A DNA stretch of 64,000 nt, taken from positions 143,014 through 207,013 of the forward strand of contig CAYZAV010000001.1 of assembly GCA_964475855.1 (NCBI GenBank), written 5' to 3'. Under the pieces are notes generated by a model. The model was not told where the DNA came from, did not search any database, and worked only from the letters and a program-made list of their open reading frames with translations. The DNA comes from an uncultured Candidatus Saccharibacteria bacterium (GTDB lineage Bacteria; Patescibacteriota; Minisyncoccia; Minisyncoccales; Staskawiczbacteraceae). Below, piece by piece: positions 21,277-55,938 of the stretch. How positions within the stretch are numbered: the first letter of the stretch is position 1; each line of letters starts with the position of its first letter. A program made the position numbers and the translations under genes.

Positions 21277-21606
21277 AGTAGTGAATGAGGGTTTATAAAT
21301 CATAAAGTTTTTACTTATGATTTATAAATCTGAATGAACGTTGAAAATATGCTTTGCATATCTTCATAAAAAGTTATCCCCGATTTTTACCAGACTTAGT
21401 AATAATAGTTAGTTAAATTAATTTTATATTTATTGTTATTATTAAGCACCCTATTTTTACTCTTTTCAGTAATAATTCCCAAGCCAGCTATCCTTAATAT
21501 TATTACATATAACTTGTGGATAATGGCGTTTATAATACGGGAAATGAGCGGGGGTTTTTGAGGGATGAGTTTTTTACTAAATAATTTATCCACTCCTTTC
21601 ACTGGT
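21277..21606. other. Candidate oriC segment (dnaA-dnaN spacer): DnaA boxes plus an AT-rich unwinding region
   Basis: TGTGGATAA at 21515-21523, TTATCCACT at 21586-21594 and 21607-21615, a degenerate TTATCCCC at 21374-21381, and an AT-rich tract at 21396-21470. Confidence 0.7.
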
Positions 21607-22965
21607 TTATCCACTATATACTCGCTGTTTTATTAAGTTTACTTCTTCGGTTAATTTACTATTTTCTTCCACTTCTTTGAGGATTTTTTTATAGGCATAA
21701 ATAACCGTAGTGTGGTCTTTGCCTCCAAATTTCCGGGCGATAGCTGGGAAGGAATATTTCAGTTCTTTGCGCAGTAAAAACATGGCAATTTGACGTGGTC
21801 GGACAATTTCCTTGCGCCTTGTTTCATGAAATAAGTGCTTTTCATCCATATTATAGAATTTTGCCACACTTTCAATAATTTTTTTATAGTTAGCCACATC
21901 AAAGGGAGAAAAGATAAAGCTTTTGAGTAGCTTTTTAGCCATTTCAAGGTTTGGAATATTGTTATTGATTTTATGGTAAATAAGCAGGCTATTAAGCGCG
22001 CCTTCTAACTCCCGGACATTCTTTTTAACATTAGAGGCAATATACTCTAAAATATCTTCAGGTAGTTTTAGGTTTTTTTCTTGGAGTTTGCTTTTTAAGA
22101 TGACGAGCCGGGTTTCATAGTCGGGCAAACTGACATCAATAGTCATGCCACCAGAAAGGCGTGAGCGTAGGCGTTCTTCTAATTCTGGGATGGCGTTGGG
22201 TTGCCGATCGCTAGAAAGAATGATTTGCTTATTTTTTTCGTATAACGAATTAAAGACATGGAAAAATTCTTCCTGGGTCTTGGTTTTACCTGAAATAAAC
22301 TGCACATCGTCTATAATTAACACATCAATGGGTGCTAGGCTCGCCTTGAACTGGTCCATACTATTAGTGCGGATAGCCGTCACAATACCTGAAACTAATT
22401 TTTCAGAAGAAATGTATTTTACTTTACGCCTTTTTACATCATTGGCAATTTTATTACCAATGGATTGTATTAAGTGTGTTTTACCTAAACCTACTCCCCC
22501 GTAAATAAATAAGGGGTTATAGCTATGACCGGGGTTTTCTGAAACAGCAAGTCCCGCGGCGTAGGCAAGTTCATTAAATGAACCCACTACAAAATTTTCA
22601 AACGTGTATTTTGGGTTAAGGTTAGTGTCTTTATTTATCTTAAATTCCTCAAACTTAAGTTGTTCAGCATCCATTTTTTCCACTTCCACCATTTCAACGG
22701 AGGATGATTTTTTTGAGGCTTGAGGGTTGATGACAAATTCTAATTCCTTGATAGTGCTATCCATGTCGTGCATGGTTTTGAGCATCAATTTATAGTATTT
22801 ATTGGAAAGCCATTCCTTGGAAAAGGCATTAGGGACAGAGATGGTAATTTTTTCATTGTCCTTAGAGCTGATTTCGGTATTCTGAAACCAGGTGGAAAAA
22901 TTCGCCTTTGAGATGTGGAGCTGCATTTGGGCCAGCACCGATTGCCAAAGTTCACCGTTATTCAT
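21607..22965 (-). CDS. dnaA: Chromosomal replication initiator DnaA
   Basis: GGVGLGKTHL, IDDVQF, and a C-terminal DNA-binding domain (RQIAMFLLRKEL...DHTTVIYA). Confidence 0.95.
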   Translation of the reverse strand: MNNGELWQSVLAQMQLHISKANFSTWFQNTEISSKDNEKITISVPNAFSKEWLSNKYYKLMLKTMHDMDSTIKELEFVINPQASKKSSSVEMVEVEKMDAEQLKFEEFKINKDTNLNPKYTFENFVVGSFNELAYAAGLAVSENPGHSYNPLFIYGGVGLGKTHLIQSIGNKIANDVKRRKVKYISSEKLVSGIVTAIRTNSMDQFKASLAPIDVLIIDDVQFISGKTKTQEEFFHVFNSLYEKNKQIILSSDRQPNAIPELEERLRSRLSGGMTIDVSLPDYETRLVILKSKLQEKNLKLPEDILEYIASNVKKNVRELEGALNSLLIYHKINNNIPNLEMAKKLLKSFIFSPFDVANYKKIIESVAKFYNMDEKHLFHETRRKEIVRPRQIAMFLLRKELKYSFPAIARKFGGKDHTTVIYAYKKILKEVEENSKLTEEVNLIKQRVYSG

Positions 22966-26735: not shown

Positions 26736-28550
26736 CTAACTTCCATCTTCCGTAGCATTGCTTTGTTTTAACTTTTTCCGAGCTTCGCGGATTTTTTCCA
26801 CTTCGCCGGGGGCGGTGGTGATGATCTGGTCTTCTGTGTAACTGGCTTTAACACTCATAAATACATGTTTTTTACCGGCGAAAAATAACCCTTCGCCTAC
26901 CGAAGCTTCCAGGAGTAAATTCTTTTCTTGTTCAGTCAGATTAAACGTTTTTTCTAGGATTTCTACGGCCGCCGGTGATTGTTTAAGTAATAACTGCAGC
27001 GAAGAGTTGGTAATAATAGCCTTGCCATAGGAAGACTTCATAAAATCTTCAATGTCTTGGGTGATAGTGGTAACTCCCAACCAATACTTGCGTCCGCGTT
27101 TTACTAGGCCGAATAGGAATGAGGCGCCGTCTTCGGTTTGCATCAGCCACCAGGCTTCGTCCACTACTAGAATACGTTTTTTGGCCTTACTACGTACAAT
27201 ATTCCAAATATATCGCATAACAATAAAGAGGGCAATCGGTTTTAGTGTCTCTTCCATATCGCGGATGCCAAACACAATAAGCTGTTTATCAATGACGATG
27301 TTAGACTTTTGGTTGAAAAATCCGGAAAAACTGCCTTCGGTGAATTTTTTCAAGCGGCGGGCCAAGGATTCGGCTCCGGTCATATTTTCCAACACCTGTC
27401 CGAAATCAGCCATAATAGGCACGTTTTCCTGCCAGGTAGCCGGGTCGGATGTCGGGGTGATGTCGCGGATGGCATACGTTTCACTGATGGCTTGGTCTAA
27501 AATACTATCTTCTTCCGCTGTCAGTCCGCCCATCATAATGCGTAGCAATCCAACTAGGTTGATAACGTTGGAACGTAACACGTCTTCGGGATTATCATCG
27601 GGTCCGGGCACCGGCAAATCAAACGGGTTGACGTGGTGCTCGGATGTCAAAGAAATTTTAAAGAAATTACCCCCTACCCCATCAGCCAAAAATTCATATT
27701 CATTTTCCGGGTCAATAATAATGACATCAATGCCCCACATCAGGTAACGCAGGATTTCAAGCTTGATGGCGTAGGATTTCCCGGAGCCGGACTTTGCAAA
27801 CACTACCATGTTGGCGTTTTCCAAAGTAAAGCGGTCAAAGAGCACTAGGGAATTATTGTGGCCGTTAACGCCGTATAAAATGCCTTCGTTACTGCTTAAA
27901 TCAAAAGAAATAAAAGGAAAGGTGGTGCTTAATGGTTCGGTATTCATGGGCACATGAATATCCACCAAGTCCATGCCATAGGGGTTTGAAGAAATAAACC
28001 CTTCACGCTGTTTAAAGAGCGCCGGTTTTATGTAAATCAAGCGGGATTCAAAAATAGACCGCAGCGAACTTTCCACTTCCCGCATTTTTTCGGCGTTATT
28101 TTCATAAATGGTGATATATAACCCGAACCGGAACATTTTTTCCTGTGCCGTCACAATTTTGTCGCGCAGCGTTTCAATATCCTGGTAACCCGTTTCCAGG
28201 GCCGGGTCACGGATTAAGCCTTTTTCTTGGCGTTCCAATAATTCCGAAGCCACCTGCGTCACTTTGGACCGCAGTTTTTTCAAAATGACTTCATTGTTGA
28301 CCGGGTGGATGAAAAAACAGATATCCATGGGGACATTCAAATTAATGGCAGGGGAAAGCCAGCCGGTATTTAAATAGCGCGGATAAGAAAAAATAAAAAA
28401 TGATTTGACGAATTTTTCGCCAAGGTTAATGTGGTCCTGGGCAATGCCAATATATGGCGGCGCAATAATATCCTTAATATCAAGCGCTTCGCTGCCATGT
28501 TCGGTCAAATTATCCAAGTCTTCTTTTTTCTTAAAAAAAGGAATTTTCAT
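26736..28550 (-). CDS. virB4: VirB4/TrbE-family type IV secretion ATPase
   Basis: Walker A AKSGSGKS, Walker B ILVVDEAW, and overall Gram-positive-type VirB4 layout. Confidence 0.8.
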   Translation of the reverse strand: MKIPFFKKKEDLDNLTEHGSEALDIKDIIAPPYIGIAQDHINLGEKFVKSFFIFSYPRYLNTGWLSPAINLNVPMDICFFIHPVNNEVILKKLRSKVTQVASELLERQEKGLIRDPALETGYQDIETLRDKIVTAQEKMFRFGLYITIYENNAEKMREVESSLRSIFESRLIYIKPALFKQREGFISSNPYGMDLVDIHVPMNTEPLSTTFPFISFDLSSNEGILYGVNGHNNSLVLFDRFTLENANMVVFAKSGSGKSYAIKLEILRYLMWGIDVIIIDPENEYEFLADGVGGNFFKISLTSEHHVNPFDLPVPGPDDNPEDVLRSNVINLVGLLRIMMGGLTAEEDSILDQAISETYAIRDITPTSDPATWQENVPIMADFGQVLENMTGAESLARRLKKFTEGSFSGFFNQKSNIVIDKQLIVFGIRDMEETLKPIALFIVMRYIWNIVRSKAKKRILVVDEAWWLMQTEDGASFLFGLVKRGRKYWLGVTTITQDIEDFMKSSYGKAIITNSSLQLLLKQSPAAVEILEKTFNLTEQEKNLLLEASVGEGLFFAGKKHVFMSVKASYTEDQIITTAPGEVEKIREARKKLKQSNATEDGS

Positions 28551-35983: not shown

Positions 35984-37507
35984 TTAGTTTTTTATGCGAT
36001 ACATCAATGCCTCGGCAATATGATCGTGTTGGATATTGTTAGAAAGTGCCAAATCGGCAATGGTCCGGGCAACTTTCAAGATGCGGTGGTATCCCCTGGC
36101 GGACAGTTTGCCCGAATCAATATATTTTTTAAGCAGCGCCCCTGATGTTTCATTATACCCGCAGTATTTTTTTATCTGTGGGATGCCCATTTCCGCGTTC
36201 ACTAATATGTGATCATTGGCAAAACGGTGGGTTTGCATGTTCCGCGCGGCGGCAATGCGTTCTTTTACTTGGTTGCTTTGGTTTTCTCCGGCGTCCGTAG
36301 TTAGTTTTTCATATTTTACCGCTGGTACTTCAATGAAAATATCAATTCGGTCCATTAGGGGGCCTGACAGCTTGCGCTTATACATGGTAATGGCGCCTTG
36401 AGCGCAGGTGCAAGGTTTTTCCGGACTGTTTAAAAAGCCACAGGGGCAGGGGTTGGAAGCCCCTACTAGCATAAACCGGCAGGGAAAGGTAAAGGTGTGC
36501 CGGGCCCGCGAAACAGTTATTTTTCCCTCTTCAATAGGTTGACGCAGTGATTCCAAGACATCACGGTGGAATTCCGGAAATTCATCTAAAAATAGCACTC
36601 CCCGGTGGGCTAGCGTAATTTCTCCCGGCCGCGGCGGACTACCTCCGCCAATCAGTGCCACATCGCTGGAAACATGATGGGGAGCCCGAAACGGCCGTGC
36701 CTGCATTAACGGTTTGTTCTCGGGTAATAATCCGGCAACACTATAAATTTTAGTAACCTCCAGAGATTCTTCAAAGGTCAGTGCGGGCAAGATGGAAGGC
36801 AAGGATTTTGCCAGCAAACTTTTACCTCCTCCTGGCGGCCCGGAGAAAAATAAATTATGCCCGCCGGCAGCTGTGATTTCCAGGGCTCGCTTGGCATATT
36901 CTTGGCCTTTGACCCAACTAATATCAATCAGAGTCTCATTAGCTTGTGATGTTTGGTCTGTGGGCTGTAATAAAAAGGGGGCAATGCGTTTTTTGTTTTC
37001 CAGATGGGCCAGGGTTTCGGCCAGTGTTTGCACGCCAATCACGTCCACATCTTTGATGAGCGCCGCCTCGGCCGCATTTTGCAGGGGCAAGATAATTTCT
37101 TTGATGCCGTGGCTGCGTGCCAGCAAAGCAAATGAAAGCGCCCCTTTGATGGGCCGTAGCTTGCCATCCAGCGCAAGTTCTCCCAGACAAATCTTCCCAT
37201 CAGAAACAAAATTAGTCTGTTTTGAGGCAATTAAAAAAGCCAAGGCGATTGGCAAATCATACAGCGAACCCTCTTTTTTCAAATCAGCCGGGGCAAGGTT
37301 GACTAAAATCCGGAACGTCCGAGTGTGGGGTGATAATAATTTGGCGGATTTGATGGCTGATTCTATCCGTTCTTTTGATTCTTCTACCGCTTTGTCGGGC
37401 AAACCCACAATGGAAAACGACCGCAATCCATGCGAAACATCAACTTCCACTTCAACTAGCTTGGCGTCCAAGCCCGTGATGGCCGCCGAAAAAACTTTGC
37501 TTGGCAT
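35984..37507 (-). CDS. YifB/ComM-family Mg-chelatase-like AAA ATPase
   Basis: N-terminal Lon-protease-like domain, GPPGGGKS, VLFLDEFPEF. Confidence 0.85.
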   Translation of the reverse strand: MPSKVFSAAITGLDAKLVEVEVDVSHGLRSFSIVGLPDKAVEESKERIESAIKSAKLLSPHTRTFRILVNLAPADLKKEGSLYDLPIALAFLIASKQTNFVSDGKICLGELALDGKLRPIKGALSFALLARSHGIKEIILPLQNAAEAALIKDVDVIGVQTLAETLAHLENKKRIAPFLLQPTDQTSQANETLIDISWVKGQEYAKRALEITAAGGHNLFFSGPPGGGKSLLAKSLPSILPALTFEESLEVTKIYSVAGLLPENKPLMQARPFRAPHHVSSDVALIGGGSPPRPGEITLAHRGVLFLDEFPEFHRDVLESLRQPIEEGKITVSRARHTFTFPCRFMLVGASNPCPCGFLNSPEKPCTCAQGAITMYKRKLSGPLMDRIDIFIEVPAVKYEKLTTDAGENQSNQVKERIAAARNMQTHRFANDHILVNAEMGIPQIKKYCGYNETSGALLKKYIDSGKLSARGYHRILKVARTIADLALSNNIQHDHIAEALMYRIKN

Positions 37508-41692: not shown

Positions 41693-41842
41693 TGTTGATA
41701 TAAAACCAGCTTCCGGCTGGCCTGTTAGATAATGGGCTAAGTATAGTATGTTTTTTTATATTTGTAAAGTGTCGCGTAATAATTTATAAAATAAATTAAA
41801 CGCGACTACAACGTAAAATTTGCTTTGCAAATTTGTTCGTTG

Positions 41843-41915
41843 TGCTCCCAGTTGGATTCGAACCAACGACCTTATCCTTAAGAGGGATTTGCTCTACCAG
41901 CTGAGCTATGGGAGC
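41843..41915 (-). tRNA. tRNA-Lys (anticodon CUU), no encoded CCA
   Basis: Hand-folded cloverleaf: acceptor GCTCCCA/TGGGAGC, D arm GCTC-AGCTGGTA-GAGC, anticodon loop CT-CTT-AA, T arm GTTGG-TTCGAAT-CCAAC. Confidence 0.9.
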
Positions 41916-41928
41916 GCGGGGTTTGCGT

Positions 41929-42387
41929 TTAAAACGAACTCCAGGCGCCAGTGTACCCTATCAACATTAACACAATGCTGATGAACAGCCAAGAGCCGAA
42001 GATGAACATCAGGGCAATAACAGATCCCCAGAGCATGGTTTTACCCATGTCGTAATATTTGGGTGCGGCGCCCGAAACCATAATTAAAATGCCTCCGGTC
42101 ACAATCAACAAACCCGCCAATGGCACAGAAATGGTCCAAACGATAAAGTTGTATATGCGTAGCGCCATCACAAAAATATCAGCCATTTCACATCGGCAAT
42201 CAGGGTATTGGCCACAGGGTACCAGCGAGCCGGCGGTGTCGGGGTGGACATAGTTTATACCGGTCGGGTCAGGCGGAGGGGGAAACACATGCGGCACATC
42301 GCACTCAACGGCACGGACCGGTAGTGAAAAAGAAAGCAAAGACAAAGCCAGGAATGAAAGAAGGGTTATGGAAAAAAGTTTCTTCAT
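41929..42387 (-). CDS. Orphan T4SS pilin-like (VirB2/TrbC-type) protein
   Basis: Signal peptide (VRA-VE), a four-Cys segment with LVPCG, and two TM helices joined by SGAAPKYYDMGKTMLWGS. The architecture parallels the N-terminus of 24837..26396. Confidence 0.5.
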   Translation of the reverse strand: MKKLFSITLLSFLALSLLSFSLPVRAVECDVPHVFPPPPDPTGINYVHPDTAGSLVPCGQYPDCRCEMADIFVMALRIYNFIVWTISVPLAGLLIVTGGILIMVSGAAPKYYDMGKTMLWGSVIALMFIFGSWLFISIVLMLIGYTGAWSSF

Positions 42388-42391
42388 AAAA

Positions 42392-42470
42392 GTTTACCCT
42401 GAGCGAAGTCGAAGAGTTTACACTGAGCGAGCGTAGCGAAGTCGAAGCGTTTACACTGAGCCTGTCGAAG
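42392..42470. repeat. Three tandem units GTTTAC(A/C)CTGAGC...GTCGAAG
   Basis: Units at 42392-42414, 42416-42446 (with an 8-nt internal duplication) and 42448-42470. The array abuts the tRNA-Arg 3' end. Confidence 0.8.
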
Positions 42471-42472
42471 TG

Positions 42473-42544
42473 TGCTCCCGGAGGGATTCGAACCCCCAAT
42501 AACAGGTTCGAAGCCTGTCGTGATATCCGTTTCACCACGGGAGC
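42473..42544 (-). tRNA. tRNA-Arg (anticodon UCG), no encoded CCA
   Basis: Hand-folded: acceptor GCTCCCG/CGGGAGC, D arm GTGA-AACGGATA-TCAC, anticodon stem ACAGG/CCTGT with loop CT-TCG-AA, T arm GGGGG-TTCGAAT-CCCTC. Confidence 0.9.
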
Positions 42545-44438: not shown

Positions 44439-45419
44439 ATGGAAAATACGGTTATTAATCCACATAACGAATTAGCATTGCCAAAGCGTAATTTGCCGCG
44501 CGATGTGTTTTTGCATTTGTTAGCCATGGTCACTTTATACTGGTCTGCCATCACGTTTATCATGCTGCTTTGGCAACATGTGAACTATTTTTTTCCTGAC
44601 GCGCTCAACATATACTATAGTGGCCTTGCTAGCCCCATCCGCTTTGCCATTGCTTCGTTGGTAATCGTCTTCCCTATTTTTATCCTGGTTTCATGGTTTT
44701 TAAACAAAATTTATGCTAAAGAAGCCGGGGTGCGTGAAAGTAAAATCCGCAAATGGCTGATTTACCTGACTCTGTTTGTCGCTTCACTTGTAATTATTGG
44801 CGACTTAATTAGCATTATTAATACTTTTTTGGGTGGTGAGCTGACCATGCGTTTTATTCTGAAAGCGCTTTCGGTTATTGTAGTGGCCGTGGTGGTATTC
44901 TGGTATTACTTAGATGATGTAAAAAGGCCAACCTCTTCCCCATTGGCGAAATATTTTGCCTGGGTGGCCGGGGTTGCCGTGGCCATTGCAGTTATTGGAG
45001 CCTTTTTTATCATTGGCTCTCCCATGAAGGCGAGGTCAGAGCAGTTTGACCAGCAACGCCTAAGTGATCTGCAAAGCATCCAGTGGCAAGTGGTAAATTA
45101 CTGGCAGAGCAAAGAGAAAATGCCAGCCAGTCTAGCTGATTTAACGGACTCCATTTCTGGTTATATGGCTCCGGTTGACCCTGAAACGGGCAATGCGTAT
45201 GAATATCGGGTAAAAAATGCAGCGGGATTGAATTTTGAATTGTGTGCCACATTTAACCTTGAATATGCCGAAGGACTTGATGGCAGAACACCAAAAGCTA
45301 TGCCCGTGTATCCATATGATGATATGAACTCCCAAGCTTGGAGCCATGCCGCCGGCCGTATCTGTTTTGACCGGACGATTGATCAGCAATTATATCCACC
45401 ACTCACTAAGGGAAAATAA
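44439..45419 (+). CDS. Polytopic membrane protein with a C-terminal pilin-like globular domain
   Basis: Several N-terminal TM helices (DUF5671-like from memory). The C-terminus RLSDLQSIQWQVVNYW...PVDPETGNAYEY...LCATF resembles pseudopilin cores. Confidence 0.4.
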   Translation: MENTVINPHNELALPKRNLPRDVFLHLLAMVTLYWSAITFIMLLWQHVNYFFPDALNIYYSGLASPIRFAIASLVIVFPIFILVSWFLNKIYAKEAGVRESKIRKWLIYLTLFVASLVIIGDLISIINTFLGGELTMRFILKALSVIVVAVVVFWYYLDDVKRPTSSPLAKYFAWVAGVAVAIAVIGAFFIIGSPMKARSEQFDQQRLSDLQSIQWQVVNYWQSKEKMPASLADLTDSISGYMAPVDPETGNAYEYRVKNAAGLNFELCATFNLEYAEGLDGRTPKAMPVYPYDDMNSQAWSHAAGRICFDRTIDQQLYPPLTKGK

Positions 45420-45420
45420 G

Positions 45421-45651
45421 ATGGAACTAGAACAGTCAAAAAATCCCGAACAGGAAAAGGCCACTAATATGGAGATCACCTTATTTCTAAGTCAACACAT
45501 TGATAATCCTTGTGAAGTTGAGGTGTATGCTGGACAAAAGGAAAATATTCGGGGTTTTTATCTTAAGGAGGCTGAAAAAATTCTCTTAACTATGACAGAT
45601 GAAAATGCCAGAAAAATGATGGAAGAAAAAATTGCCGAGTATAAAGAATAG
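45421..45651 (+). CDS. Hypothetical protein (76 aa)
   Basis: The ATG at 45421 follows the upstream stop directly. The track start at 45346 overlaps the previous gene. Confidence 0.45.
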   Translation: MELEQSKNPEQEKATNMEITLFLSQHIDNPCEVEVYAGQKENIRGFYLKEAEKILLTMTDENARKMMEEKIAEYKE

Positions 45652-45654: not shown

Positions 45655-46038
45655 ATGGACACCAGGCAACTAGGCGAATTAGGTGAAAAAATAGCCTGTG
45701 GATATCTTGTTGAAAAGGGGTTTACTATCCTGGGGAAAAACTATAGGATAACGTTCGGAGAAATAGACATTATTGCGCGTCATAAAGATATTATTCATTT
45801 TGTGGAAGTAAAAGCCCTTCGACAGGCTCAGGGCGAGCCATTAATCGAGGGCTTTTTTCCTGAAGAGCATGTCAATTACAAAAAGCAGCGAAAATTGCTG
45901 CAGATGGCCCAGATCTGGCTTGAGCAAAACCGTTATCCACAAGATTTCCCCTATCAAATAGATATCGTGGGTATTTTGGTAAATGAAACCGTCCGCAGCG
46001 CCAAACTCCATTATTTTCCTAATGCCGTCGGGGGATAG
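45655..46038 (+). CDS. yraN: YraN-family endonuclease (UPF0102)
   Basis: GELGEKIACGYLVEKGFTILGKNYR...GEIDIIA...FVEVK. Confidence 0.8.
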   Translation: MDTRQLGELGEKIACGYLVEKGFTILGKNYRITFGEIDIIARHKDIIHFVEVKALRQAQGEPLIEGFFPEEHVNYKKQRKLLQMAQIWLEQNRYPQDFPYQIDIVGILVNETVRSAKLHYFPNAVGG

Positions 46039-46063
46039 TCATCTTCCTACGCGCGCCATTTGT

Positions 46064-46114
46064 TGACAAGAGATTTTGTTACTGTATACTTAATTTATAC
46101 CTGGGGGGTAGGTA
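46064..46114 (+). promoter_or_regulatory. Promoter-like hexamers plus a CsoR-type operator candidate TACCtGGGGGGtaGGTA
   Basis: TTGACA at 46064-46069 and TATACT at 46085-46090 (short 15-nt spacer). The G-tract pseudo-palindrome at 46098-46114 lies 18 nt upstream of the csoR ATG. Confidence 0.5.
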
Positions 46115-46132
46115 CTAGTAACCTATAAAACT

Positions 46133-46408
46133 ATGATTTCACATAATAAACAAAAAGCCTTGATTAGTTTCAAAAAAGCTCAAAGCCATATCTCAAAAAT
46201 TATAGAGATGGTTGAGCAAGATAAATATTGCATTGATGTTATGCAGCAGAATTTGGCTGTGCTTGGTTTACTTAAATCAGCCCACAAAATGCTAATGGAA
46301 AATCATTTGAATATGTGTTTTAAGGACGCAATGGCAAGTAAGAATGAAAAAAAGAAACAAGAAATGACACAGGAAATCCTTAAAGTTACTAACCTATTCA
46401 ATAAATAA
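46133..46408 (+). CDS. csoR: CsoR/RcnR-family metal-sensing repressor
   Basis: YCIDVMQQ...HL..C pattern (the C-H-C ligand set). Confidence 0.75.
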   Translation: MISHNKQKALISFKKAQSHISKIIEMVEQDKYCIDVMQQNLAVLGLLKSAHKMLMENHLNMCFKDAMASKNEKKKQEMTQEILKVTNLFNK

Positions 46409-46409
46409 C

Positions 46410-47429
46410 ATGGCACAAGAACAAACATACTATATTAAGGGAATGCATTGTGCCGCTTGCGAAATCCTGATTGAAAAGAAGCTCTTGGAAATTCCAGGTG
46501 TTAAAGCTGTTGATGCCTCAATTGTGGATGGAAAGGCTGTTGTCGAATACGAAGGTGAAAAACCTGCTTTAGGTTTCTTGAATAACATTTTCAGGAAAGA
46601 TAATTATTCCTTTTCAGAAAGCCAAAGTTTTGTTGCTGAAAATACTAATACTTCGGGAAACTCAATGTTGCTTGGTTTGGCTATAGCAGTAATCATTATT
46701 GCGGTATTTTTAGGATTAGAAAGAATGGGAATATCTGGATTTTTTAACATAAGCTCTAGTTCCTCGTTATTCTCATTCTTTGGTTTTGGGATATTGGCTG
46801 GTTTTTCCAGTTGTGCTGCATTAGTGGGTGGTATTGTATTATCTATGGCAAAGCAATGGAGTGAACTGTATTCAGCAGAAGACTCTTCTGTTAAAAAGCT
46901 ACAACCACATATTTTATTTAATACAGGACGCATTTTATCTTATGCAATACTTGGTGGAGTTTTAGGGTTAATTGGTAGTAGGTTGTCGTTATCTTTCACG
47001 GTAACAGCCTGGCTCATTATTGTTATTTCCCTGTTAATGATTACGCTTGCCCTTCAAATGTTAGACATGAAAGCATTCAGAAAATTCCAAATTAGGTTGC
47101 CCAAAAGCATTACCCAAGGAATTGCCAATGAAAAGAAATTTAAAGGCAGATATATGCCATTTATGATGGGAGCGGCCACTTTCTTTTTACCTTGTGGCTT
47201 TACCATTACCGCCCAAACCATTGCCTTGCTATCGGCTAATACAATCCAGGGAGCTTTGATTATGGGACTTTTTGCCTTGGGGACAGCTCCCGTACTCTTG
47301 CTTATTGGCATATCCAGCGTAAAATTTCTTTCAAAGCCGCACTTAGCATTAACTTTTTCAAAAGTAGCAGGGTTTTTGGTATTATTTTTCGCTATATATA
47401 ATATTTATAATCAAATACAATTATTATGA
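46410..47429 (+). CDS. HMA-domain protein fused to a polytopic membrane domain (DsbD_2/TauE-like)
   Basis: N-terminal GMHCAACE metal-binding motif, with membrane Cys motifs SSCAALVGG and FFLPCGFT. Confidence 0.55.
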   Translation: MAQEQTYYIKGMHCAACEILIEKKLLEIPGVKAVDASIVDGKAVVEYEGEKPALGFLNNIFRKDNYSFSESQSFVAENTNTSGNSMLLGLAIAVIIIAVFLGLERMGISGFFNISSSSSLFSFFGFGILAGFSSCAALVGGIVLSMAKQWSELYSAEDSSVKKLQPHILFNTGRILSYAILGGVLGLIGSRLSLSFTVTAWLIIVISLLMITLALQMLDMKAFRKFQIRLPKSITQGIANEKKFKGRYMPFMMGAATFFLPCGFTITAQTIALLSANTIQGALIMGLFALGTAPVLLLIGISSVKFLSKPHLALTFSKVAGFLVLFFAIYNIYNQIQLL

Positions 47430-47842
47430 ACCAGAAAATTATTCAATATGGGTCAGTCGCAGTTATTATCGTTGCTGTTTTGATTTCAGGATATATCATG
47501 TTAAATCCGAAATCCGAAGCACGAAATCCGAATACGAGTGGTTTGGCTCCAATAGTTGATGGAAAACAAGAAGTTAAAATGACTGTGCTCGCCGTAGACT
47601 ACTCCCCTCGCACTTTTAAGGTAAAAGCAGGCGTGCCAGTAAAATGGGAAATCACTTCCTCGGGTCAAGCTGGATGTGCCAGCGGAGCCGTATATATCAA
47701 TGGCTTAGTAGAAAGTCCCATTTACTTAAATCCAGAGCAGGGACAAGTTAAAGTGGTAGAATTTACGCCGCAAACACCAGGAACATATAAATTTAATTGC
47801 AGTATGAATATGGCGCGCGGAACTATAGAAGTTATTAACTAA
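47426..47842 (+). CDS. Membrane-anchored cupredoxin-like protein
   Basis: N-terminal TM segment, GCASG, and C-terminal FNCSMNMARG ligand-like motifs. Confidence 0.55.
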   Translation: MNQKIIQYGSVAVIIVAVLISGYIMLNPKSEARNPNTSGLAPIVDGKQEVKMTVLAVDYSPRTFKVKAGVPVKWEITSSGQAGCASGAVYINGLVESPIYLNPEQGQVKVVEFTPQTPGTYKFNCSMNMARGTIEVIN

Positions 47843-47851
47843 TTTAAGTCA

Positions 47852-50068
47852 ATGATTTCAAAAACTTTCATCATAAAAGGGATGCACTGTGCTTCTTGCT
47901 CAAGCCTTATAGAAATGACCCTCAAGAAAATTGAAGGAGTATTTTCTGTGGAAGCTAATTATGCAACTGAAACCGCTAAAATCTCTTTTGATGAAACAAA
48001 AATTACTCCAGAAAATCTTTCAAAAAAGATAGAGCCTTTGGGTTATTCATTTATTATGCCAGCTGAACACGCCGCCCACACTGGTATTGGCCAATCCAAA
48101 AAAGAAAAACTGGCTGAAATCAAAGAGCAGAAAAATAAAGTGTTATCGGCTATCCCACTTGCCGTAATTAGTATTTTTATTATGGGCTGGGACATATTGG
48201 CACAATTTAATTGGGTTCCTGCCATGAATTATACAACCAGTGAATTTTTCCATCACCTATTACCGATTATAGCCACCTATATGCTTTTTGTAGTTGGCAA
48301 GCCGTATCTTTTAGGGATGTATCGGTTTTTTCGTTATGGGAAAGCAAATATGGACAGCTTAATTGGTATTGGGACTTCTGTCGCCTTTTTGTATAGCTTC
48401 ATTGTAACGGCCTTTGAAGAACCACTGGCTCAATTCATTAATGTCCAGCACACCTACTATGATATTACCATTGTAGTTATTGCTTTCATTACTCTTGGAA
48501 AATATTTAGAAGCCAAGTCAAAGTTAAAAACAGGGGACGCCATAGAAAAGTTACTCAACCTTCAAGCCAAAACAGCATTGGTGATAAAAAACGGCAAGGA
48601 AGTGGAAATTCCGGTAAATGAAGTAAAACACGGGGACCTGATTATTATCAAACCCGGGGCTAAAATTCCTGTTGACGGCATTATTACCGAAGGCAGTTCG
48701 TTTATTGATGAATCAATGGTTACTGGCGAACCTATGCCAACAGAAAAGAAAGTTGGAGATTCAGTTGTTAGTGGAACTCTAAATACTAACAGCACATTTA
48801 CGTTTAAGGCCACTAAAGTTGGCTCTGAAACTTTACTCGCTCATATTGTTAAAATGGTGCAGGATGCCCAAGGAAGCCGAGCACCCATTCAGGCTTTGGC
48901 TGATAAAATTTCCAGTGTCTTTGTGCCAATAGTTTTAGTGATCTCTGTAGTTACTTTAATTATTTGGCTTACCGTGGGAACATATTATCTAGGTTTTTCC
49001 CAGGCTCTTTCCTTGGGATTAACTTCTTTCGTAGGTATTCTTATTATTGCTTGTCCCTGTGCATTGGGTCTGGCTACGCCTACGGCAATCATTGTAGGTG
49101 TCGGCAAAGGAGCGAGAGAGGGTATTCTTATTAAGGATGCCGCAACGCTGGAAAAACTTCACAAGGTAGACACGGTTATTATGGATAAAACAGGAACGCT
49201 AACCCGCGGCAAGCCGGAAGTAACCCATGTTTCAGACGAAAGCATTATGCAAATTTTTGCTTCTCTGGAAAGTAAATCAGAGCATCCAATTGCTTCTGCT
49301 ATTGTGGCTTACGCAGCTGCGCGAAACATTTCTTTGCTGCCGGTTTCTGATTTTTCTGCGATTCACGGAAAAGGGGTGAAAGGCGTCATTAATGGTAAGA
49401 AATATTTTGCCGGCAACGCAAAAATGATGATTGATATTGGGCTAGAGGTTGATGGCGGGCCACAGCTTGCACTGGCCACGAAAGAAAAAGTATTGGGAAC
49501 CGTTATGGTTGCCGATGCGGTAAAACCAGAAGCGATTGAGGCTATTAACAATCTTCACAAACTTGGTATTAAAACGGTTATGCTTACGGGAGATAGTAAA
49601 AATACCGCCAACGCTATTGCCAAAGAGGTTGGCATTGACGAAGTGATTGCGGAAGTGCTTCCTGAAGATAAATTGAATACCGTAAAAGAGTTTCAAAAGA
49701 AGGGAAGAATAGTTGCTATGGCTGGAGACGGGGTAAACGATGCTCCTGCACTTGCCCAAGCTGATGTGGGCATTGCTATGGGAACGGGAACTGATGTGGC
49801 TATAGAGACTGCTGGAATCACTCTTTTGCACGGAGATGTCTCCAAGATAGTTAAAGTCATTAAATTATCGAAAATTACGATGAGAGGCATTAAGCAGAAT
49901 CTTTTTTGGGCCTTTATCTATAACTTGGCGGGTATACCGCTTGCTGCAGGTTTATTTTTCCCAATATTCGGCTGGACATTGAATCCCATTTTTGCTGGAC
50001 TTGCCATGGCTTTTTCAAGTTTGAGTGTAGTAAGTAATAGTTTAAGGATTAAGGCAAAGAAACTATAA
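47852..50068 (+). CDS. copA: Copper-translocating P-type ATPase
   Basis: GMHCASC HMA domain, CPC in [28 protein letters not shown]. Confidence 0.9.
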
Positions 50069-50157
50069 AAACTAAGCCTTTTTGGGGGGGGGCGAGCTGA
50101 CAGCGCGGTTTATTTTAAAGGCGCTATCGGTGATTGCCGTTTCCTTCCCCATTAGCC

Positions 50158-50382
50158 GGTGAATATCTTGTTGAAAAAGGGTTTACCATCCTGGGTAAAA
50201 ACCATAGGGTAAAGTTTGGAGAAATAGATATTATCGCGCGGCATAAAGATAGTATTCATTTCGTGGAAGAAAACCGTTATCTACAGGATTTTTCCTATCA
50301 AATAGATATTATTGGTATTTTGGTTGACGAAGTCGTTCGCCGCGCCAAGTTGCATTATTTTCCGAATGCGGTTAGTGGGTAA
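50158..50382 (+). pseudogene. Decayed second copy of yraN
   Basis: 60 of 73 alignable residues are identical to 45655..46038 (counted from the track translations). It lacks the N-terminus and the internal 39 aa that include the EVK catalytic motif. Confidence 0.7.
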
Positions 50383-50498: not shown

Positions 50499-52304
50499 AT
50501 GAAGACTTTGATGACGGTCACTGGTTATTTTCTGGAACTGAAAGCCGTTTTGATTTCGGTCAACCGGCAGGTGTGGGGTATTGATCCCTGGTATGTGGCC
50601 TACAGCTGGATTGCGGAAGCTTTTTCGTATCTGACCAATGTGGCGCCATTCCTGTTTGTCGTCATTGGTGTCGGCTATGTCATTGAAACGCCAGAGCTAA
50701 GCTCGGCCGTGGTATTGGTGGGGGTTGGTGTATTCACCGCCTATTTGGCCGTGAAAAGCATCTTGGAATCCTGGTCGGATGAACGGCGCAGCCTGTTTGA
50801 CAATCTGTTGTCAACTCGGCTGGAGCTATCCTATATTGAGCATCTTGCCACATTGGATTTGGGTCGCTTGACTGACCCTGCCTTTATCAAACTTGCGCGT
50901 CTGGCCGAAAGCCGGGGCAAGCAATCGGTCAAAAATCTGTGGGAGTCCCAGAAAAACCTGGTTGGCGCTACGGTTGCGGTCCTGGCATTCGCATCCCTGT
51001 TGCTGACACTTGATTGGGTGATCGGGATTCTTGCCATTTTCATGGCGGCTCCCGCGATTGCCAAGCGCTGGTTTTCCGAACAGAAACTCCGGGAGCTTGA
51101 TGAAATGGAAACGCTGATATACCGCCAACGCAGTACGTTTCGCGATGCTATTTCCGATCCCGAAATGGCCATTTTGACCCGTCTGCTTAAATTAACCAAG
51201 CCATTTTTCAGCAGGTATTTTGATCTTACCGACATCCTGAAAACCAACGTCTACCTGCTTGCCCGCTTCCAAAAATGGTGGGACTTGTTTGTCGGGTTTA
51301 CGATGTTGGTATGCATTGTCGTGTTCGGCCTGTATTTCTCATCTGGGTTGGTGGCAGGCCGCTATACCCTGGTAGAAATCGGAGGAATTCTTACCAGCTT
51401 GCGGTTAATCACATTTAGCATCCAGCAATTTGGCTGGTCGCTTGGCCAAATTGGCAAGGAGCGCAAAGACTACGGGTATTTGGAAGAATTTTTCCAAACC
51501 CGGCCGCTGGTTGACGAGTGCGGATGCCGTCCCATTATTTTGGCCGCTACTCCGGAGTTGAAATTTAATGACCTTACGTTTGCCTATCCCAGACAAACGA
51601 AAAATGTCATTAATGGTATTTCTTTTACCATTGCCCCCGGCGAAAAATCCGCCTTGGTCGGGCCAAATGGCTGTTGTAAGACAACCCTGTTGCGCCTGAC
51701 TAGCAAGGTGTACGTTTCCAAAGGCAGTATTTGGGCTGGCCAACACCGGTTGGATGAAATGCTGCAAGATTCCTGGCTGCGTCACGTGGTCATGATTACC
51801 CAATCTGCCTCGTTGTCCGGCATGGAAATTGCCAGGGCTATCACTGGTCAGGAACGGGCAAAAGCTGATCTGCAGCGCCTCAACAAAGCATTGGCATTTG
51901 CCGGTGCTGATAGTATTGTCAGTGAACTCCCACTCGGGCTGGATACCTGGATTGGCGAAGAGTGGCCAAACGGCAAGGGGTTTTCCCCGGGCGAGCGCAA
52001 ACGGTTTATCTTGGCCGCCGCCTTTTATCAGCTGCTTTGTCCACAGGTCTTCATCGCCCTGTTTGATGAACCAACGGAAAGTTGCGATGCCGAAACCAAA
52101 GCCAAGTTTTACCAGGCAATTACCCAAGCTCCCGAATTTGTCGAAAAGACCATTTTGGTAAGCCTGCACGATCCACTGTACCTGCATTTTTTTGACCGCG
52201 TGCTCCAATTTGAATCGGGCAGGCTGGTCAACGATTTGCGTGGCCCATCGGAAATCGAAGCCTATCAAGGCACCATTAGCCTGGCATTGGCCCAGGATTT
52301 GTAA
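50499..52304 (+). CDS. Fused ABC transporter (permease + ATPase) with a non-canonical P-loop
   Basis: The ATG at 50499 is preceded by GGAG (50489-50492). The motifs are Walker A GPNGCCKT (C where the invariant G precedes K), signature FSPGE, Walker B LFDEPT, and an H-loop SLHD. Confidence 0.7.
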   Translation: MKTLMTVTGYFLELKAVLISVNRQVWGIDPWYVAYSWIAEAFSYLTNVAPFLFVVIGVGYVIETPELSSAVVLVGVGVFTAYLAVKSILESWSDERRSLFDNLLSTRLELSYIEHLATLDLGRLTDPAFIKLARLAESRGKQSVKNLWESQKNLVGATVAVLAFASLLLTLDWVIGILAIFMAAPAIAKRWFSEQKLRELDEMETLIYRQRSTFRDAISDPEMAILTRLLKLTKPFFSRYFDLTDILKTNVYLLARFQKWWDLFVGFTMLVCIVVFGLYFSSGLVAGRYTLVEIGGILTSLRLITFSIQQFGWSLGQIGKERKDYGYLEEFFQTRPLVDECGCRPIILAATPELKFNDLTFAYPRQTKNVINGISFTIAPGEKSALVGPNGCCKTTLLRLTSKVYVSKGSIWAGQHRLDEMLQDSWLRHVVMITQSASLSGMEIARAITGQERAKADLQRLNKALAFAGADSIVSELPLGLDTWIGEEWPNGKGFSPGERKRFILAAAFYQLLCPQVFIALFDEPTESCDAETKAKFYQAITQAPEFVEKTILVSLHDPLYLHFFDRVLQFESGRLVNDLRGPSEIEAYQGTISLALAQDL

Positions 52305-52314
52305 ATTACCCATA

Positions 52315-52347
52315 CTCCGCTATTATCATGGCGGAGCTTTTATTTTG
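52315..52347 (+). terminator. Rho-independent terminator
   Basis: CTCCGC-loop-GCGGAG followed by CTTTTATTTT. Confidence 0.55.
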
Positions 52348-52359
52348 AGGGACTATATA

Positions 52360-52387
52360 TTGACGGAATGCTAATATGTAGTAGTAT
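52360..52387 (+). promoter_or_regulatory. Promoter TTGACG-16-TAGTAT
   Basis: Hexamers at 52360-52365 and 52382-52387. Confidence 0.45.
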
Positions 52388-52437
52388 TAAATTAATAAGG
52401 GAATGTTTCCCTTTGCACCTACACAAGGAGATCGAAT

Positions 52438-52980
52438 ATGTTCTGGTTCATCGTCTTTGCGCTGATGGTATTGCAACAGGTTGTCAATATGTGGCGGAAA
52501 GGAATCTTTTACCGCGCGGAGGTTGTTTTGCTGGGTATCTCCGCCTTGCTATGCGCATTGATATTGGCTAGTGTCACGGCTTTCTCAGTGGGTGCTCTGG
52601 TTGGTGCCCAAGAAAAGCAATGGGTTTTGGAAGAAACCGAAGAAATCATCAAGTTGGTCAGCTTGCGCGACCAACAAGGAGGGGCCGCCGGACGCTTTAT
52701 GCTTGGCACCGGTACTATCGGCAACGCTGATTATTATTACTTCTACAAAGAAGTTGGTGACGGCTATCAAGCCGACAAGGTGCGCGTGGGCAACAACGCG
52801 ACCATCTTCGAACGAAAGTCAGAGGCCGAAAAACAGCCGGGCAGCGAGTTGAAAATCCGTAGGATTACGTTTAAGTTGAAGTATTCTTCTTGGTTTTACT
52901 TCTCCTTCCCGCCCAATTCCACCGTAGAATACCAGTTCTTCATTCCTCAAGGAAGCTTAAAGAAAAGCTTCAGCCTGTAG
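52438..52980 (+). CDS. Hypothetical membrane protein (180 aa)
   Basis: Strong RBS AAGGAG 7 nt upstream, two N-terminal TM helices; no family recognised. Confidence 0.6.
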   Translation: MFWFIVFALMVLQQVVNMWRKGIFYRAEVVLLGISALLCALILASVTAFSVGALVGAQEKQWVLEETEEIIKLVSLRDQQGGAAGRFMLGTGTIGNADYYYFYKEVGDGYQADKVRVGNNATIFERKSEAEKQPGSELKIRRITFKLKYSSWFYFSFPPNSTVEYQFFIPQGSLKKSFSL

Positions 52981-53240: not shown

Positions 53241-54446
53241 ATGGACATAAAAAACTTCCAGCGTGCGCTGGCGCAAATTGCTGAAACTCGGGGCATTTCG
53301 CCTGAAGCCATCATTGAAACTATTGAGGCGGCTTTGGCAACGGCTTACAAAAAGGACTATGGGCAGAAGGGGCAGAAAATAAAAGCCAAATTTAACCAGG
53401 TATCGGGTGATGCCCAGTTTTGGCAACTGAAATTGGTGGTGGATGAAAGTATGCTGTATACGGAAGAGGAAATTGAAGAAATGAAGGCCCAGAAATTGGT
53501 ACCGGCTGAAGATTTTGGTGTGGCGCGCGAAGGAGAAGAGCCGATTAAAAAAGTGGTCTTTAATGCTGAAAAGCATATCATGCTGGCCGATGCCAAGAAA
53601 GAAAATAAGGGTATTGCTGTGGGCGAAGAGCTGGAAATCCCCTTGGTATCAAAGCAAGATTACGGCCGGATTGCCGCCCAAACTGCTAAACAGGTTATTT
53701 TACAGAAAATCCGTGAAGCGGAAAAAGATGTCATTGCCTCCGAATATCGAAGCAAGGAAGGGGAAATCATCTCCGGCGTGGTACAGCGCATGGAGGGAAG
53801 CGTGGTACTGGTGGATATTGGCAAGACGCTAGGTATTTTAAACCGCGAAGAACAAATTCCCGGCGAATATTACAAGCAAGCCCAACGCCTAAAATTTTAT
53901 ATTCTAAAAGTGGAAGAAACGCCAAGGGGAAGCGTGGTGGTTTTGAGTCGCGCCTATCCAAAACTGGTTTCGCGGTTGTTTGAATTAGAGGTTCCTGAAA
54001 TTGCTTCGGGGGTGGTGGAAATTAAATCCATTGCGCGTGAAGCAGGGTATCGCACCAAAATAGCTGTGGCTTCAACAGAAGATCGGATTGACCCGATTGG
54101 CAGTTGTGTGGGCCAGCGGGGCAGTCGCATTATGGCGGTGATTAATGAATTGGGCGGAGAAAAAATTGATGTTATCGGCTGGAGCGATGACCCGCAAAAA
54201 TTTATTGCCAATGCATTGAGCCCGGCTAAAGTGTCCAGGGTGCATATTGGTGAAAAAAATTCAGCCGCGGTTGATGTGGGCGAAGACCAGTTGAGTCTCG
54301 CTATTGGCAAGGAGGGCAGGAATGTGAGGCTGGCAAGTAATTTGACAGGCTGGAAGATTGATATCAAGCCGGTTGCGGCACCAAAGGAAACAAAAGCGGC
54401 AGAAGATGCAGAAGTTACAAAGGACGCACCAAAAGAAGAAAAATAG
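53241..54446 (+). CDS. nusA: Transcription termination/antitermination factor NusA
   Basis: N-terminal domain, S1 and two KH domains (GSCVGQRGSRI, AIGKEGRNVRLA). Confidence 0.9.
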   Translation: MDIKNFQRALAQIAETRGISPEAIIETIEAALATAYKKDYGQKGQKIKAKFNQVSGDAQFWQLKLVVDESMLYTEEEIEEMKAQKLVPAEDFGVAREGEEPIKKVVFNAEKHIMLADAKKENKGIAVGEELEIPLVSKQDYGRIAAQTAKQVILQKIREAEKDVIASEYRSKEGEIISGVVQRMEGSVVLVDIGKTLGILNREEQIPGEYYKQAQRLKFYILKVEETPRGSVVVLSRAYPKLVSRLFELEVPEIASGVVEIKSIAREAGYRTKIAVASTEDRIDPIGSCVGQRGSRIMAVINELGGEKIDVIGWSDDPQKFIANALSPAKVSRVHIGEKNSAAVDVGEDQLSLAIGKEGRNVRLASNLTGWKIDIKPVAAPKETKAAEDAEVTKDAPKEEK

Positions 54447-54458: not shown

Positions 54459-55307
54459 ATGCAAAGGGAGTTAATTGTTAGATTGCACAAAAACTTTGAA
54501 GATTGTGCTCATGAGAAAAATGGGGTTGAGTTTTGGTATGCCCGGGAGTTGCAAGGACTTTTAGGGTATGATAAATGGAGTAACTTTGAAAATGTAATTG
54601 CTAAAGCAAAGATTGCTTGTGAAAATGCTAAACAGGCAGTTGCTGATCATTTTGCCGACGTCGGTAAAACGATCCAAATGCCCAAGGGGGCTAGCAAAGA
54701 AATACCTGATGTCATGTTAACCAGATATGCCTGCTATCTGATCGCTCAGAATGGTGACCCTAGAAAAGATGAAATAGCTTTTGCTATGACGTACTTTGCC
54801 GTGCAGACAAGGAGGCAGGAAGTGGTGGAGCAAAGATTGGCACAATGGGAACGGCTAAAAGCCAGGGGAAAACTTTCCATTTCAGAAAAAACGTTATCGG
54901 GCATTTTATTTGAGAGAGGTGTTGATGGGCAAGGGTTTGCTAGAATTAGAAGCAAGGGCGATGCAGCGCTCTTTGGAGGAAATACAACTCAAGATATGAA
55001 AAGCAAACTTGGTGTGCCAGAGAATAGGGCATTGGCAGATTTTTTGCCAAGTGTAACTATTAAGGCTAAAGACTTTGCTAATGAAATTACGAGTTTTAAT
55101 GTAAAAAAAGATAAAAATGTAAAGGGTGAGGTACCTATTACGGGTGAGCATATAAAAAATAATAACAATGTTCGTGAAGTTCTTGCAAAGAGTGGAATTC
55201 GCCCCGAATTATTGCCGCCAGAAGAAGATATTAAAAAGCTTGAGCGAAAACTGAAGTCTGAAGATAAGAAATTACCAAAGTCAGTCAAGAAGCTAGAAAG
55301 AAAATAA
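54459..55307 (+). CDS. dinD: DNA damage-inducible protein D (DinD-like, BRO-N type)
   Basis: EFWYARELQGLLGY, LTRYACYLIAQNGDP and YFAVQTRRQE parallel E. coli DinD as I recall it. Confidence 0.7.
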   Translation: MQRELIVRLHKNFEDCAHEKNGVEFWYARELQGLLGYDKWSNFENVIAKAKIACENAKQAVADHFADVGKTIQMPKGASKEIPDVMLTRYACYLIAQNGDPRKDEIAFAMTYFAVQTRRQEVVEQRLAQWERLKARGKLSISEKTLSGILFERGVDGQGFARIRSKGDAALFGGNTTQDMKSKLGVPENRALADFLPSVTIKAKDFANEITSFNVKKDKNVKGEVPITGEHIKNNNNVREVLAKSGIRPELLPPEEDIKKLERKLKSEDKKLPKSVKKLERK

Positions 55308-55323
55308 TTAACTTCTTTAAACT

Positions 55324-55938
55324 ATGCCAAAACAAGAGGGCGATCCGTTACCAGAAGAAAAACCGATAAAAAATTCTCCACCAGAATTATTAGAAACAAC
55401 CCCCGCGAATCAAAATCTGGAAGAACGTGAAGAAGAGTTAAAAGAAAGGCTTCTTGGGGAACTTAATCAGAAGATTGAATATGCCATGGCTTCGGACATA
55501 GAAGATCCCGAATTCGGCCATAAGCACGACATTGTAAGGTTGCAACATGATAAAACATTTATTGAAAGTATGCTTCCGAGAGATACTAAGACATTCCTTG
55601 GAACAAAATTTGGGAGTCGGGAATGGCATCAACGACTTCTTGAAGACGCGTTAAGAGAGGAGGAAATTCTTCAACAAGAAGATGCAAAACTAAGTGAAGA
55701 GTATAAGAGTGTTAGCGGAGAAATGATAAAAGCTGCGGGATTGGTTAAGTCACAGGAATTATGGTCAAAAGCTAGGAATATTTTGACTTTTGGTATTTAC
55801 AAAGGAAGGGATTACCAAAAAGAATACGAAGATCTTAAAAAACATAGGGATGAGGTGCAAGAAAAAATTCTGGAAAATGAGAGAAAATTAAGGCTCGCTA
55901 AATCTCAGGAAGATTCAGCTATAAAAGCGTTAAAATAA
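55324..55938 (+). CDS. Hypothetical charged protein (204 aa)
   Basis: No family recognised. Confidence 0.5.
   Translation: MPKQEGDPLPEEKPIKNSPPELLETTPANQNLEEREEELKERLLGELNQKIEYAMASDIEDPEFGHKHDIVRLQHDKTFIESMLPRDTKTFLGTKFGSREWHQRLLEDALREEEILQQEDAKLSEEYKSVSGEMIKAAGLVKSQELWSKARNILTFGIYKGRDYQKEYEDLKKHRDEVQEKILENERKLRLAKSQEDSAIKALK

Follow-up and report, generated by a model that had tools for sequence, protein, structure and literature searches.

Homology-facilitated illegitimate recombination, in which incoming DNA is joined to the chromosome through a homologous anchor at one end and without homology at the other, has been described in Acinetobacter baylyi, Streptococcus pneumoniae, Pseudomonas stutzeri and Escherichia coli, and its illegitimate joint typically falls where donor and recipient share 3-10 nt of microhomology. 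PMC3240628 describes it as a route of integration. The e14 element, a 15-kb prophage of E. coli K-12 with its own integrase, duplicates only a C-terminal fragment of its target gene icd (PMC13626634). Here we describe a locus that can be compared with both. It lies in a 64,000-nt stretch of DNA from an uncultivated Parcubacterium (GenBank assembly GCA_964475855.1, contig CAYZAV010000001.1, positions 143,014 to 207,013 of the forward strand), hereafter the window, in which a four-gene copper cassette ending in the ATPase gene copA is bracketed by an intact copy of yraN and by a diverged, 5′-truncated second copy of the same gene. That this island is an acquired copper-resistance cassette is well supported. 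With a rough probability of 0.55, we also propose that it came from a related donor in which it lay directly 3′ of the donor's own yraN, and that it was integrated through yraN homology, with no integrase taking part.

As in the icd/e14/icdC arrangement, where icdC is a pseudogene, the intact target gene stands at one end of the insert and a displaced, diverged and N-terminally truncated copy at the other, and the element supplies a substitute gene part, so that gene function is kept. Unlike e14, the insert is a bare 4-kb operon without a recombinase, and it duplicates 115 of the 127 codons. With homology-facilitated illegitimate recombination the locus would share the integration of foreign DNA without a mobility gene, a homologous anchor at one end combined with lack of homology at the other, and a host equipped with the transformation-recombination genes comM and yraN. 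It differs in that laboratory events usually delete recipient DNA by the anchor, whereas here the anchor is mostly kept as a second copy, and in that the event would be a natural and old one in an uncultivated Parcubacterium. In gene content the cassette resembles the CsoR-CopA (CopZ) operons of Gram-positives and Patescibacteria, sharing with them a CsoR-family repressor with a C-H-C triad, a GC-rich operator (putative here) overlapping a sigma-70-type promoter, and a P1B-1 ATPase with a CPC motif and an N-terminal CxxC domain; it departs from them in its gene order (csoR, HMA-DsbD, cupredoxin, copA) and in having the HMA domain fused to a DsbD_2 membrane domain, with no free CopZ. The parts of the locus are as follows.

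45655-46038, forward strand: intact yraN, the left copy, 127 aa, UPF0102 PD-(D/E)xK nuclease family (PF02021)
46039-46062, forward strand: left junction spacer, 24 nt, from the yraN stop to the cassette promoter
46063-46114, forward strand: cassette promoter and putative CsoR-type operator
46133-46408, forward strand: csoR, 91 aa, Cu(I)-sensing repressor family (PF02583)
46410-47429, forward strand: HMA-DsbD_2/CcdA-like membrane protein, 339 aa (PF13386, PF00403)
47426-47842, forward strand: cupredoxin-domain protein, 138 aa, with an N-terminal hydrophobic segment (PF13473)
47852-50068, forward strand: copA, predicted P1B-type Cu(I)-exporting ATPase, 738 aa (TIGR01511)
50069-50151, forward strand: right junction spacer, 83 nt, with a run of nine G (G9) at 50084-50092
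50152-50382, forward strand: yraN remnant, the right copy, codons 13-51 and 92-127 only

The left yraN gives a full match to PF02021 (79.4 bits against a gathering score of 23.6, profile positions 1-80 of 80) and is matched by all NCBIfam YraN models, each below its equivalog cut-off. Its translation carries D38 (GEID38IIA) together with E51 and K53 (FVE51VK53), and the three columns are conserved in the 30 closest homologues. In the YraN of Legionella pneumophila, D37 and E50 have been mutated (bioRxiv 10.1101/2024.02.06.579203). The left copy recurs unchanged in contigs of several samples and has 241 homologues, the best non-self match being 76% identical, and its product is a predicted UPF0102 PD-(D/E)xK nuclease; a first-pass annotation of the window, made from the letters and a list of open reading frames (ORFs), was right in calling this copy intact.

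The same annotation had described the copper block as bracketed by direct yraN repeats, and both a repeat search and a codon alignment agree with this. Homology between the two copies starts at codon 13 (45691 in the left copy, 50152 in the right) and ends at the stop codon of both, and was recovered as two direct repeats, 45692-45812 against 50153-50273 (88% nucleotide identity) and 45926-46037 against 50270-50381 (79%). Because the other direct-repeat families reported between 44 and 52 kb are all of 31 nt or less, the yraN repeat far exceeds what chance would produce. Codons 1-12, the start codon included, are missing from the right copy, whose truncation point coincides with the cassette junction, 83 nt past the copA stop. 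This copy has also undergone an in-frame deletion of 117 nt, equivalent to 45809-45925 of the left copy, and matches PF02021 at 38.5 bits over profile positions 4-38 only. Sixty-one of its 74 alignable residues are identical to those of the left copy (84% at the nucleotide level), a slight revision of the earlier count of 60 of 73 that leaves the relationship as it was proposed. The losses at the N-terminus and of 39 internal residues had likewise been seen correctly, although the EVK of the nuclease motif is not gone as a whole: E51 is retained (FVEE|NRY), and V52, K53 and the next 37 residues are missing (codons 52-91).

At sites conserved in the 30 closest homologues, the right copy shows the derived replacements C15G, Y30H, I32V, I46S, P95L and P99S, the first of them at an invariant cysteine. 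Judged from its sequence, the right copy is a pseudogene remnant. Its frame is still open and is joined into an 82-aa ORF with a TTG start (50134-50382), which one metagenome annotation (L009; L-numbers denote the loci compared here) calls a UPF0102 gene; annotators should treat this 82-aa "UPF0102" ORF as a pseudogene without the catalytic lysine.

The two copies are old. Compared over 72 shared codons, they are 84.3% identical at the nucleotide level, with 0.62 synonymous substitutions per synonymous site (dS) and 0.09 nonsynonymous substitutions per nonsynonymous site (dN). The left copy and its orthologue from the related lineage L006 are 84.7% identical (dS 0.52, dN 0.10), and the right copy and the same orthologue 79.6% (dS 0.77, dN 0.14), while nusA and the PPase gene of the window each differ from their L006 counterparts by 16% of nucleotides. 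Since the divergence between left and right matches that between the window and L006, the two yraN copies are as diverged as orthologues of separate species. Furthermore, the two copies give a Nei-Gojobori dN/dS of 0.15 (bootstrap 95% interval 0.06-0.32), which exceeds 0.5 in 0.05% of bootstraps; a right copy evolving neutrally ever since a duplication should have produced a ratio of 0.5 or more. Both the low ratio and the species-level divergence speak against a recent tandem duplication, as had been argued from the protein alignment.

When changes were polarised with three outgroups, third codon positions yielded nine changes on the right branch and eight on the left, and first and second positions 12 on the right and two on the left. 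As the silent changes are symmetric and the replacements are in excess on the right, equal time appears to have elapsed on both branches, with a late relaxation of constraint on the right one; a fully neutral right branch, which should have gathered still more replacements, is disfavoured (binomial P = 0.03). These patterns suggest that the remnant still functioned during the greater part of its divergence and did not begin as a dead duplicate. Very roughly, given the small counts, constraint may have persisted over some two-thirds of its branch, with the final third spent as a pseudogene.

We also considered the right copy as an independent paralogue with intact relatives elsewhere, an outcome that the first-pass annotation had itself named as contrary to its proposal, and rejected it: of 119 homologues, even the best shares only 54 of 74 residues with the right copy, as against 61 of 74 for the left copy.

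The neighbourhood of the island was compared among five related lineages (L005; L006, which is also the lineage of L183-185; L007; L093; and L096). The relevant genes of the window outside the bracketed block are listed here, together with their G+C content at third codon positions (GC3) where it matters.

44439-45419: DUF5671 gene, upstream of orf76
45421-45651, forward strand: orf76, a low-GC accessory ORF (GC3 0.33), 5′ of yraN
50499-52980, forward strand: ABC exporter (601 aa) and orf180, a second accessory block between the remnant and nusA
53241-54446, forward strand: nusA, the direct downstream neighbour of yraN in four of the five related lineages
35984-37507, reverse strand: comM/yifB gene of a Mg-chelatase-like AAA+ helicase (TIGR00368; Pfam ChlI, Mg_chelatase, Mg_chelatase_C)

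The DUF5671 gene and the matches of yraN and copA assign the window to Parcubacteria, the best named matches being Staskawiczbacteria-like. The five lineages share the order PNPase-NYN-S15-...-CCA-DUF5671-...-yraN-nusA-PPase-tig-clpP-rny. Each has a single yraN, and none has cop genes at this locus; the synteny check that had been recommended thus gave relatives without the island, and not relatives that all carry it next to a single yraN. In L005, L006/L183, L093 and L096, nusA is the next gene after yraN; in L007, the two are separated by three small ORFs and an unrelated ABC gene. The nearest lineage is L006/L183, whose NusA is 94% identical to that of the window, and the further matches in a metagenome scan with nusA were more distant (at most 79% identity), with a single-copy yraN beside nusA in L093 and L096. 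From this distribution, the ancestral arrangement would have been yraN directly followed by nusA.

The cop genes have a GC3 of 0.32-0.36, as compared with 0.45-0.50 in the core neighbours. Being absent from relatives, deviant in GC3 and copper-resistance-related in function, the cassette is a genomic island in the broad sense. It does not have the make-up of an integrase-type element, which comprises a recombinase and a tRNA or tmRNA site with att repeats. As previously noted from the ORF list, there is no integrase or transposase: none of the ORFs tested between 40.8 and 63.8 kb contains such a domain, and the non-coding DNA beside the cassette, only 24 nt on one side and 83 nt on the other, is too short to hide a decayed integrase gene. 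No tRNA gene is present at the island, the nearest ones being located at 41842-42544, and in place of short identical att sites the flanking repeat consists of a diverged gene copy of 231 nt.

All four gene calls of the first-pass annotation in the cassette were confirmed by Pfam and NCBIfam profiles. The csoR product matches PF02583 with 62.1 bits (cut-off 22.8), its best NCBIfam match, RicR/CsoR, staying below the cut-off of that model; the C-H-C triad C33, H58 and C62 can be read from its sequence and suggests Cu(I) specificity. The membrane protein scores 110 bits with PF13386 and 46 bits with PF00403, and has the HMA motif GMHCAAC at its N-terminus, and the cupredoxin protein scores 42 bits with PF13473. 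CopA reaches 604.8 bits with TIGR01511 (cut-off 397), matches Pfam E1-E2_ATPase, Hydrolase and HMA, and displays the motifs GMHCASC (the N-terminal CxxC), CPC, DKTGT and MxxSS; it is a predicted P1B-1 copper-exporting ATPase. Upstream of csoR is a sigma-70-type promoter, the best in the region, with TTGACA at 46063-46068 and TATACT at 46085-46090 separated by a 16-nt spacer (11 of 12 consensus positions). It is followed by the 18-nt GC-rich box ATACCTGGGGGGTAGGTA at 46097-46114, and the identical box is found upstream of csoR in L176, even though the cassette of that locus is only about 76% identical. By analogy with known GC-rich CsoR boxes, we regard it as a putative CsoR-type operator. A rise in Cu(I) would then cause CsoR to leave the operator, and the products of the operon would export or otherwise handle copper.

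The same four-gene cassette was found in three other loci, L173, L176 and L179, which encode the closest CopA proteins (85%, 82% and 79% identical, respectively). Their membrane proteins are 83-85% identical to that of the window, the cupredoxin gene occupies the same position, and the cassettes as a whole are 76-81% identical at the nucleotide level from the −35 box to the copA stop. Most of the CopA relatives from patescibacterial reference genomes, in contrast, are found in the order csoR-copA-HMA/DsbD. In L173 the cassette lies between a GH3 gene and GAF/pyruvate-kinase genes, in L176 it follows rny and two small genes and adjoins a tRNA cluster, and in L179 it follows an acyltransferase gene. 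Because the same four genes occur in three different contexts, the cassette is mobile, and it moves as a bare promoter-to-stop operon. Nucleotide homology between the window and the other cop cassettes begins at 46063 and ends at the copA stop or 12 nt past it (about 50080). The left 24-nt spacer has no match in any other locus fetched, nor does the junction segment 50081-50151; the junction spacers gave no Rfam hit, and the right one shows no significant RNA fold (z = −1.2).

In L176 (5879-6650), the cassette starts right after the tRNA cluster (His, Arg, Pro, Gly), which contains duplicated 3′ fragments of tRNA-Pro (6308-6335) and tRNA-Gly (6605-6630) plus a 58-nt repeat. These features look like scars of site-specific integration beside the cassette; apart from the tRNA-fragment duplications, no flanking direct repeats were found around the cassettes of L173, L176 and L179.

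Several explanations for the paired yraN copies have to be weighed. The source is a metagenome-assembled genome, and short-read assemblies of the same runs break within the cassette (in the cupredoxin gene at the end of L001 and in copA at the start of L008), as might be the case if strains with and without the island had been joined in a chimeric contig, giving a false second yraN. Yet independent contigs from several samples and runs agree with both junctions at 100% identity (L001-L004 on the left, L008-L009 on the right), and the G9 run at the right junction, to which the first-pass annotation had drawn attention, has the same length in the two independent assemblies L008 and L009. Since the junctions and G9 are reproduced base for base in independent assemblies of several samples, such an artefact is highly improbable; moreover, the alternative join was seen in no contig, and a right copy that is 16% diverged, 5′-truncated and internally deleted is not what strain chimerism would be expected to produce. 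An old tandem duplication of yraN in situ has more in its favour. Both copies would have stayed functional for a long time, until an illegitimate insertion of the cassette between them deleted codons 1-12 of the downstream copy and left it to decay. This sequence of events predicts that the copies should be sisters, and left and right do group together against L183 plus L005 or L007 (92% quartet bootstrap); a low overall dN/dS is also expected if both paralogues were maintained, and the single yraN of the sampled relatives, which split off before left and right did, is compatible with a later duplication. Nor was a donor with yraN next to the cassette found: there is no yraN in the fetched flanks of the L173, L176 and L179 cassettes, and none around the CopA relatives at 80 reference-genome loci, for which DNA of up to 10 kb on each side was fetched. 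We nevertheless consider the duplication scenario unlikely, as it takes three events in place of one and is less parsimonious, and would have a streamlined genome maintain two small nuclease genes for long, only for the cassette to insert exactly between them and clip the second. Two yraN copies are found in none of the related loci examined, and the point of truncation is the cassette junction itself.

Less likely again is site-specific integration of a small element with its attachment site in yraN, carrying a replacement for the 3′ part of the gene and served by an integrase that acted in trans or was subsequently lost. Such an element would have the same architecture as icd-e14-icdC (PMC13626634) and would fit the sharp start of homology at codon 13, and the position of the L176 cassette, beside tRNA genes with duplicated tRNA 3′ fragments, is a hallmark of nearby site-specific integration. 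However, the locus has neither an integrase gene or remnant nor the room for one, the non-coding DNA beside the cassette amounting to 24 and 83 nt. The other cassettes end without a yraN fragment and are not flanked by direct repeats, and the duplicated segment is nearly the whole gene. Our preferred explanation, integration of donor DNA by way of yraN homology, draws on two observations: the right copy is truncated at the cassette junction, and yet it was constrained through most of its history. Most simply, the copies would have diverged in two related lineages, functional in each, until the delivery of the cassette placed them in one chromosome; the incoming DNA would then have carried a yraN segment beside the cassette. 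The first-pass annotation had already suggested acquisition from a donor with its own yraN flank: the acquisition is borne out, and the donor flank is the best inference, no donor having been found in the loci searched.

It should be kept in mind that several observations pull in the other direction. In addition to the sister grouping of the copies and the failed search for the donor arrangement, all rate estimates rest on about 74 codons, and the excess of replacements that the right copy shows is only of marginal significance (Fisher P = 0.07). The GC3 values of the shared codons are alike (0.38 and 0.36), and do not distinguish the native copy from the incoming one; the distance of the left copy to L006 fits vertical descent, and a close donor is also compatible with it. 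Finally, the copies are about 84-88% identical, with the longest identical runs of 15-16 nt, and RecA-type recombination between them would be inefficient at this identity, with the caveat that the remnant has decayed since the integration event.

Under integration by yraN homology, the promoter-to-stop cassette (46063 to about 50080) would have entered the Parcubacteria chromosome from a related donor in which it was placed directly downstream of the donor's own yraN. A linear fragment could have been anchored by homologous recombination in or upstream of yraN, its second joint being an illegitimate one at codon 13 of the resident yraN, as in homology-facilitated illegitimate recombination. 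Alternatively, a circularised molecule consisting of yraN codons 13-127, the cassette and 70 nt could have been integrated by a single Campbell-type crossover. A crossover of this kind within yraN might be visible as chimerism of the two copies; in both halves of the gene, homologues are nearer to the left copy than to the right, with no visible switch. Both routes would yield a full-length yraN, the cassette and a 5′-truncated second yraN, which would afterwards have lost 117 nt in frame and gained replacement changes, with the intact yraN predicted to retain its function.

Saccharibacteria, in which competence is known, belong to the same radiation as Parcubacteria. Natural competence has been shown experimentally in the former and not in the latter (PMC10633639), and YraN and ComM have been reported to act as a nuclease/helicase pair that resolves the transformation D-loop (bioRxiv 10.1101/2024.02.06.579203). 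The window encodes both proteins: in addition to the intact yraN, comM is found 8 kb away from it, its product matching TIGR00368 with 581 bits (cut-off 362). With comM and an intact yraN present, a reported role of the pair at the D-loop and competence in Saccharibacteria, natural transformation is plausible, and it is probably how the cassette entered. Tentatively, and with a smaller chance of being right than the donor scenario as such, the locus may be viewed as a fossilised case of integrase-free integration with one-sided homology after natural transformation, in which a bare operon travelled with a conserved housekeeping gene, yraN, as its portable homology arm.

The island is not the only insertion in this part of the chromosome. 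The ABC exporter and orf180 have a GC3 of 0.58-0.61, above that of both the core and the cop genes, and this block is absent from L005 and L183, while L007 holds an unrelated ABC gene in the corresponding place (27% amino acid identity). The yraN-nusA gap seems to have taken up inserts more than once, as a hotspot would, and the gaps on either side of yraN, towards DUF5671 and towards nusA, may be flagged as insertion hotspots in this lineage. On the DUF5671 side, orf76 (GC 35%) is overlapped by a 101-aa ORF at 45346-45651 and has four distant homologues in a collection of 5.8 billion proteins, all of them in unrelated contexts; its position in the relatives is taken by other genes (135 aa and 300 aa in L183) or by nothing, and it may have been acquired together with the left yraN and the cassette. 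Further downstream, between nusA and the H+-pyrophosphatase gene, a DinD-like gene (DNA-damage-inducible protein D, Bro-N domain; 282 aa) and a 204-aa gene of no known function occupy 54459-55938, with a GC3 of 0.30-0.34. As nothing separates nusA from the pyrophosphatase gene in L005, L007 and L183, this pair represents a second accessory insertion within a few kb of the cop island.

Elsewhere in the window, dnaN and dnaA are adjacent on the reverse strand (20152-22965), and for this reason the region of the chromosomal replication origin is probably included, about 23 kb from the cop island. A TraG/VirB4-like P-loop ATPase is encoded at 26736-28550 (reverse strand), and the ORF at 41929-42387 (reverse strand) has a weak similarity to type IV secretion pilins (E = 0.004, below the Pfam cut-off); the two may be parts of a type IV secretion or conjugation-like system of Patescibacteria. 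A PilB/T2SSE ATPase is encoded at 11116-12438.

Patescibacteria have tiny genomes with few recognisable mobile elements, and yet carry accessory cassettes at different sites in related genomes. Where the target gene has been retained as a diverged second copy, the junction offers a rare chance to read how DNA entered such a genome; the present one favours integration assisted by homology, with natural transformation as the probable prior step, over the action of an integrase. It also provides a relative date, as the donor and recipient lineages would have been separated at the species level. If yraN did provide the homology arm, promoter-to-stop cassettes could be using this as a general means of hopping between unrelated sites in Patescibacteria, and the arm would be the very gene of the transformation D-loop nuclease. 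In kind, the event is an ordinary one, the gain of a metal-resistance cassette at a hotspot; its junction is unusually legible, in a radiation that is poorly understood.

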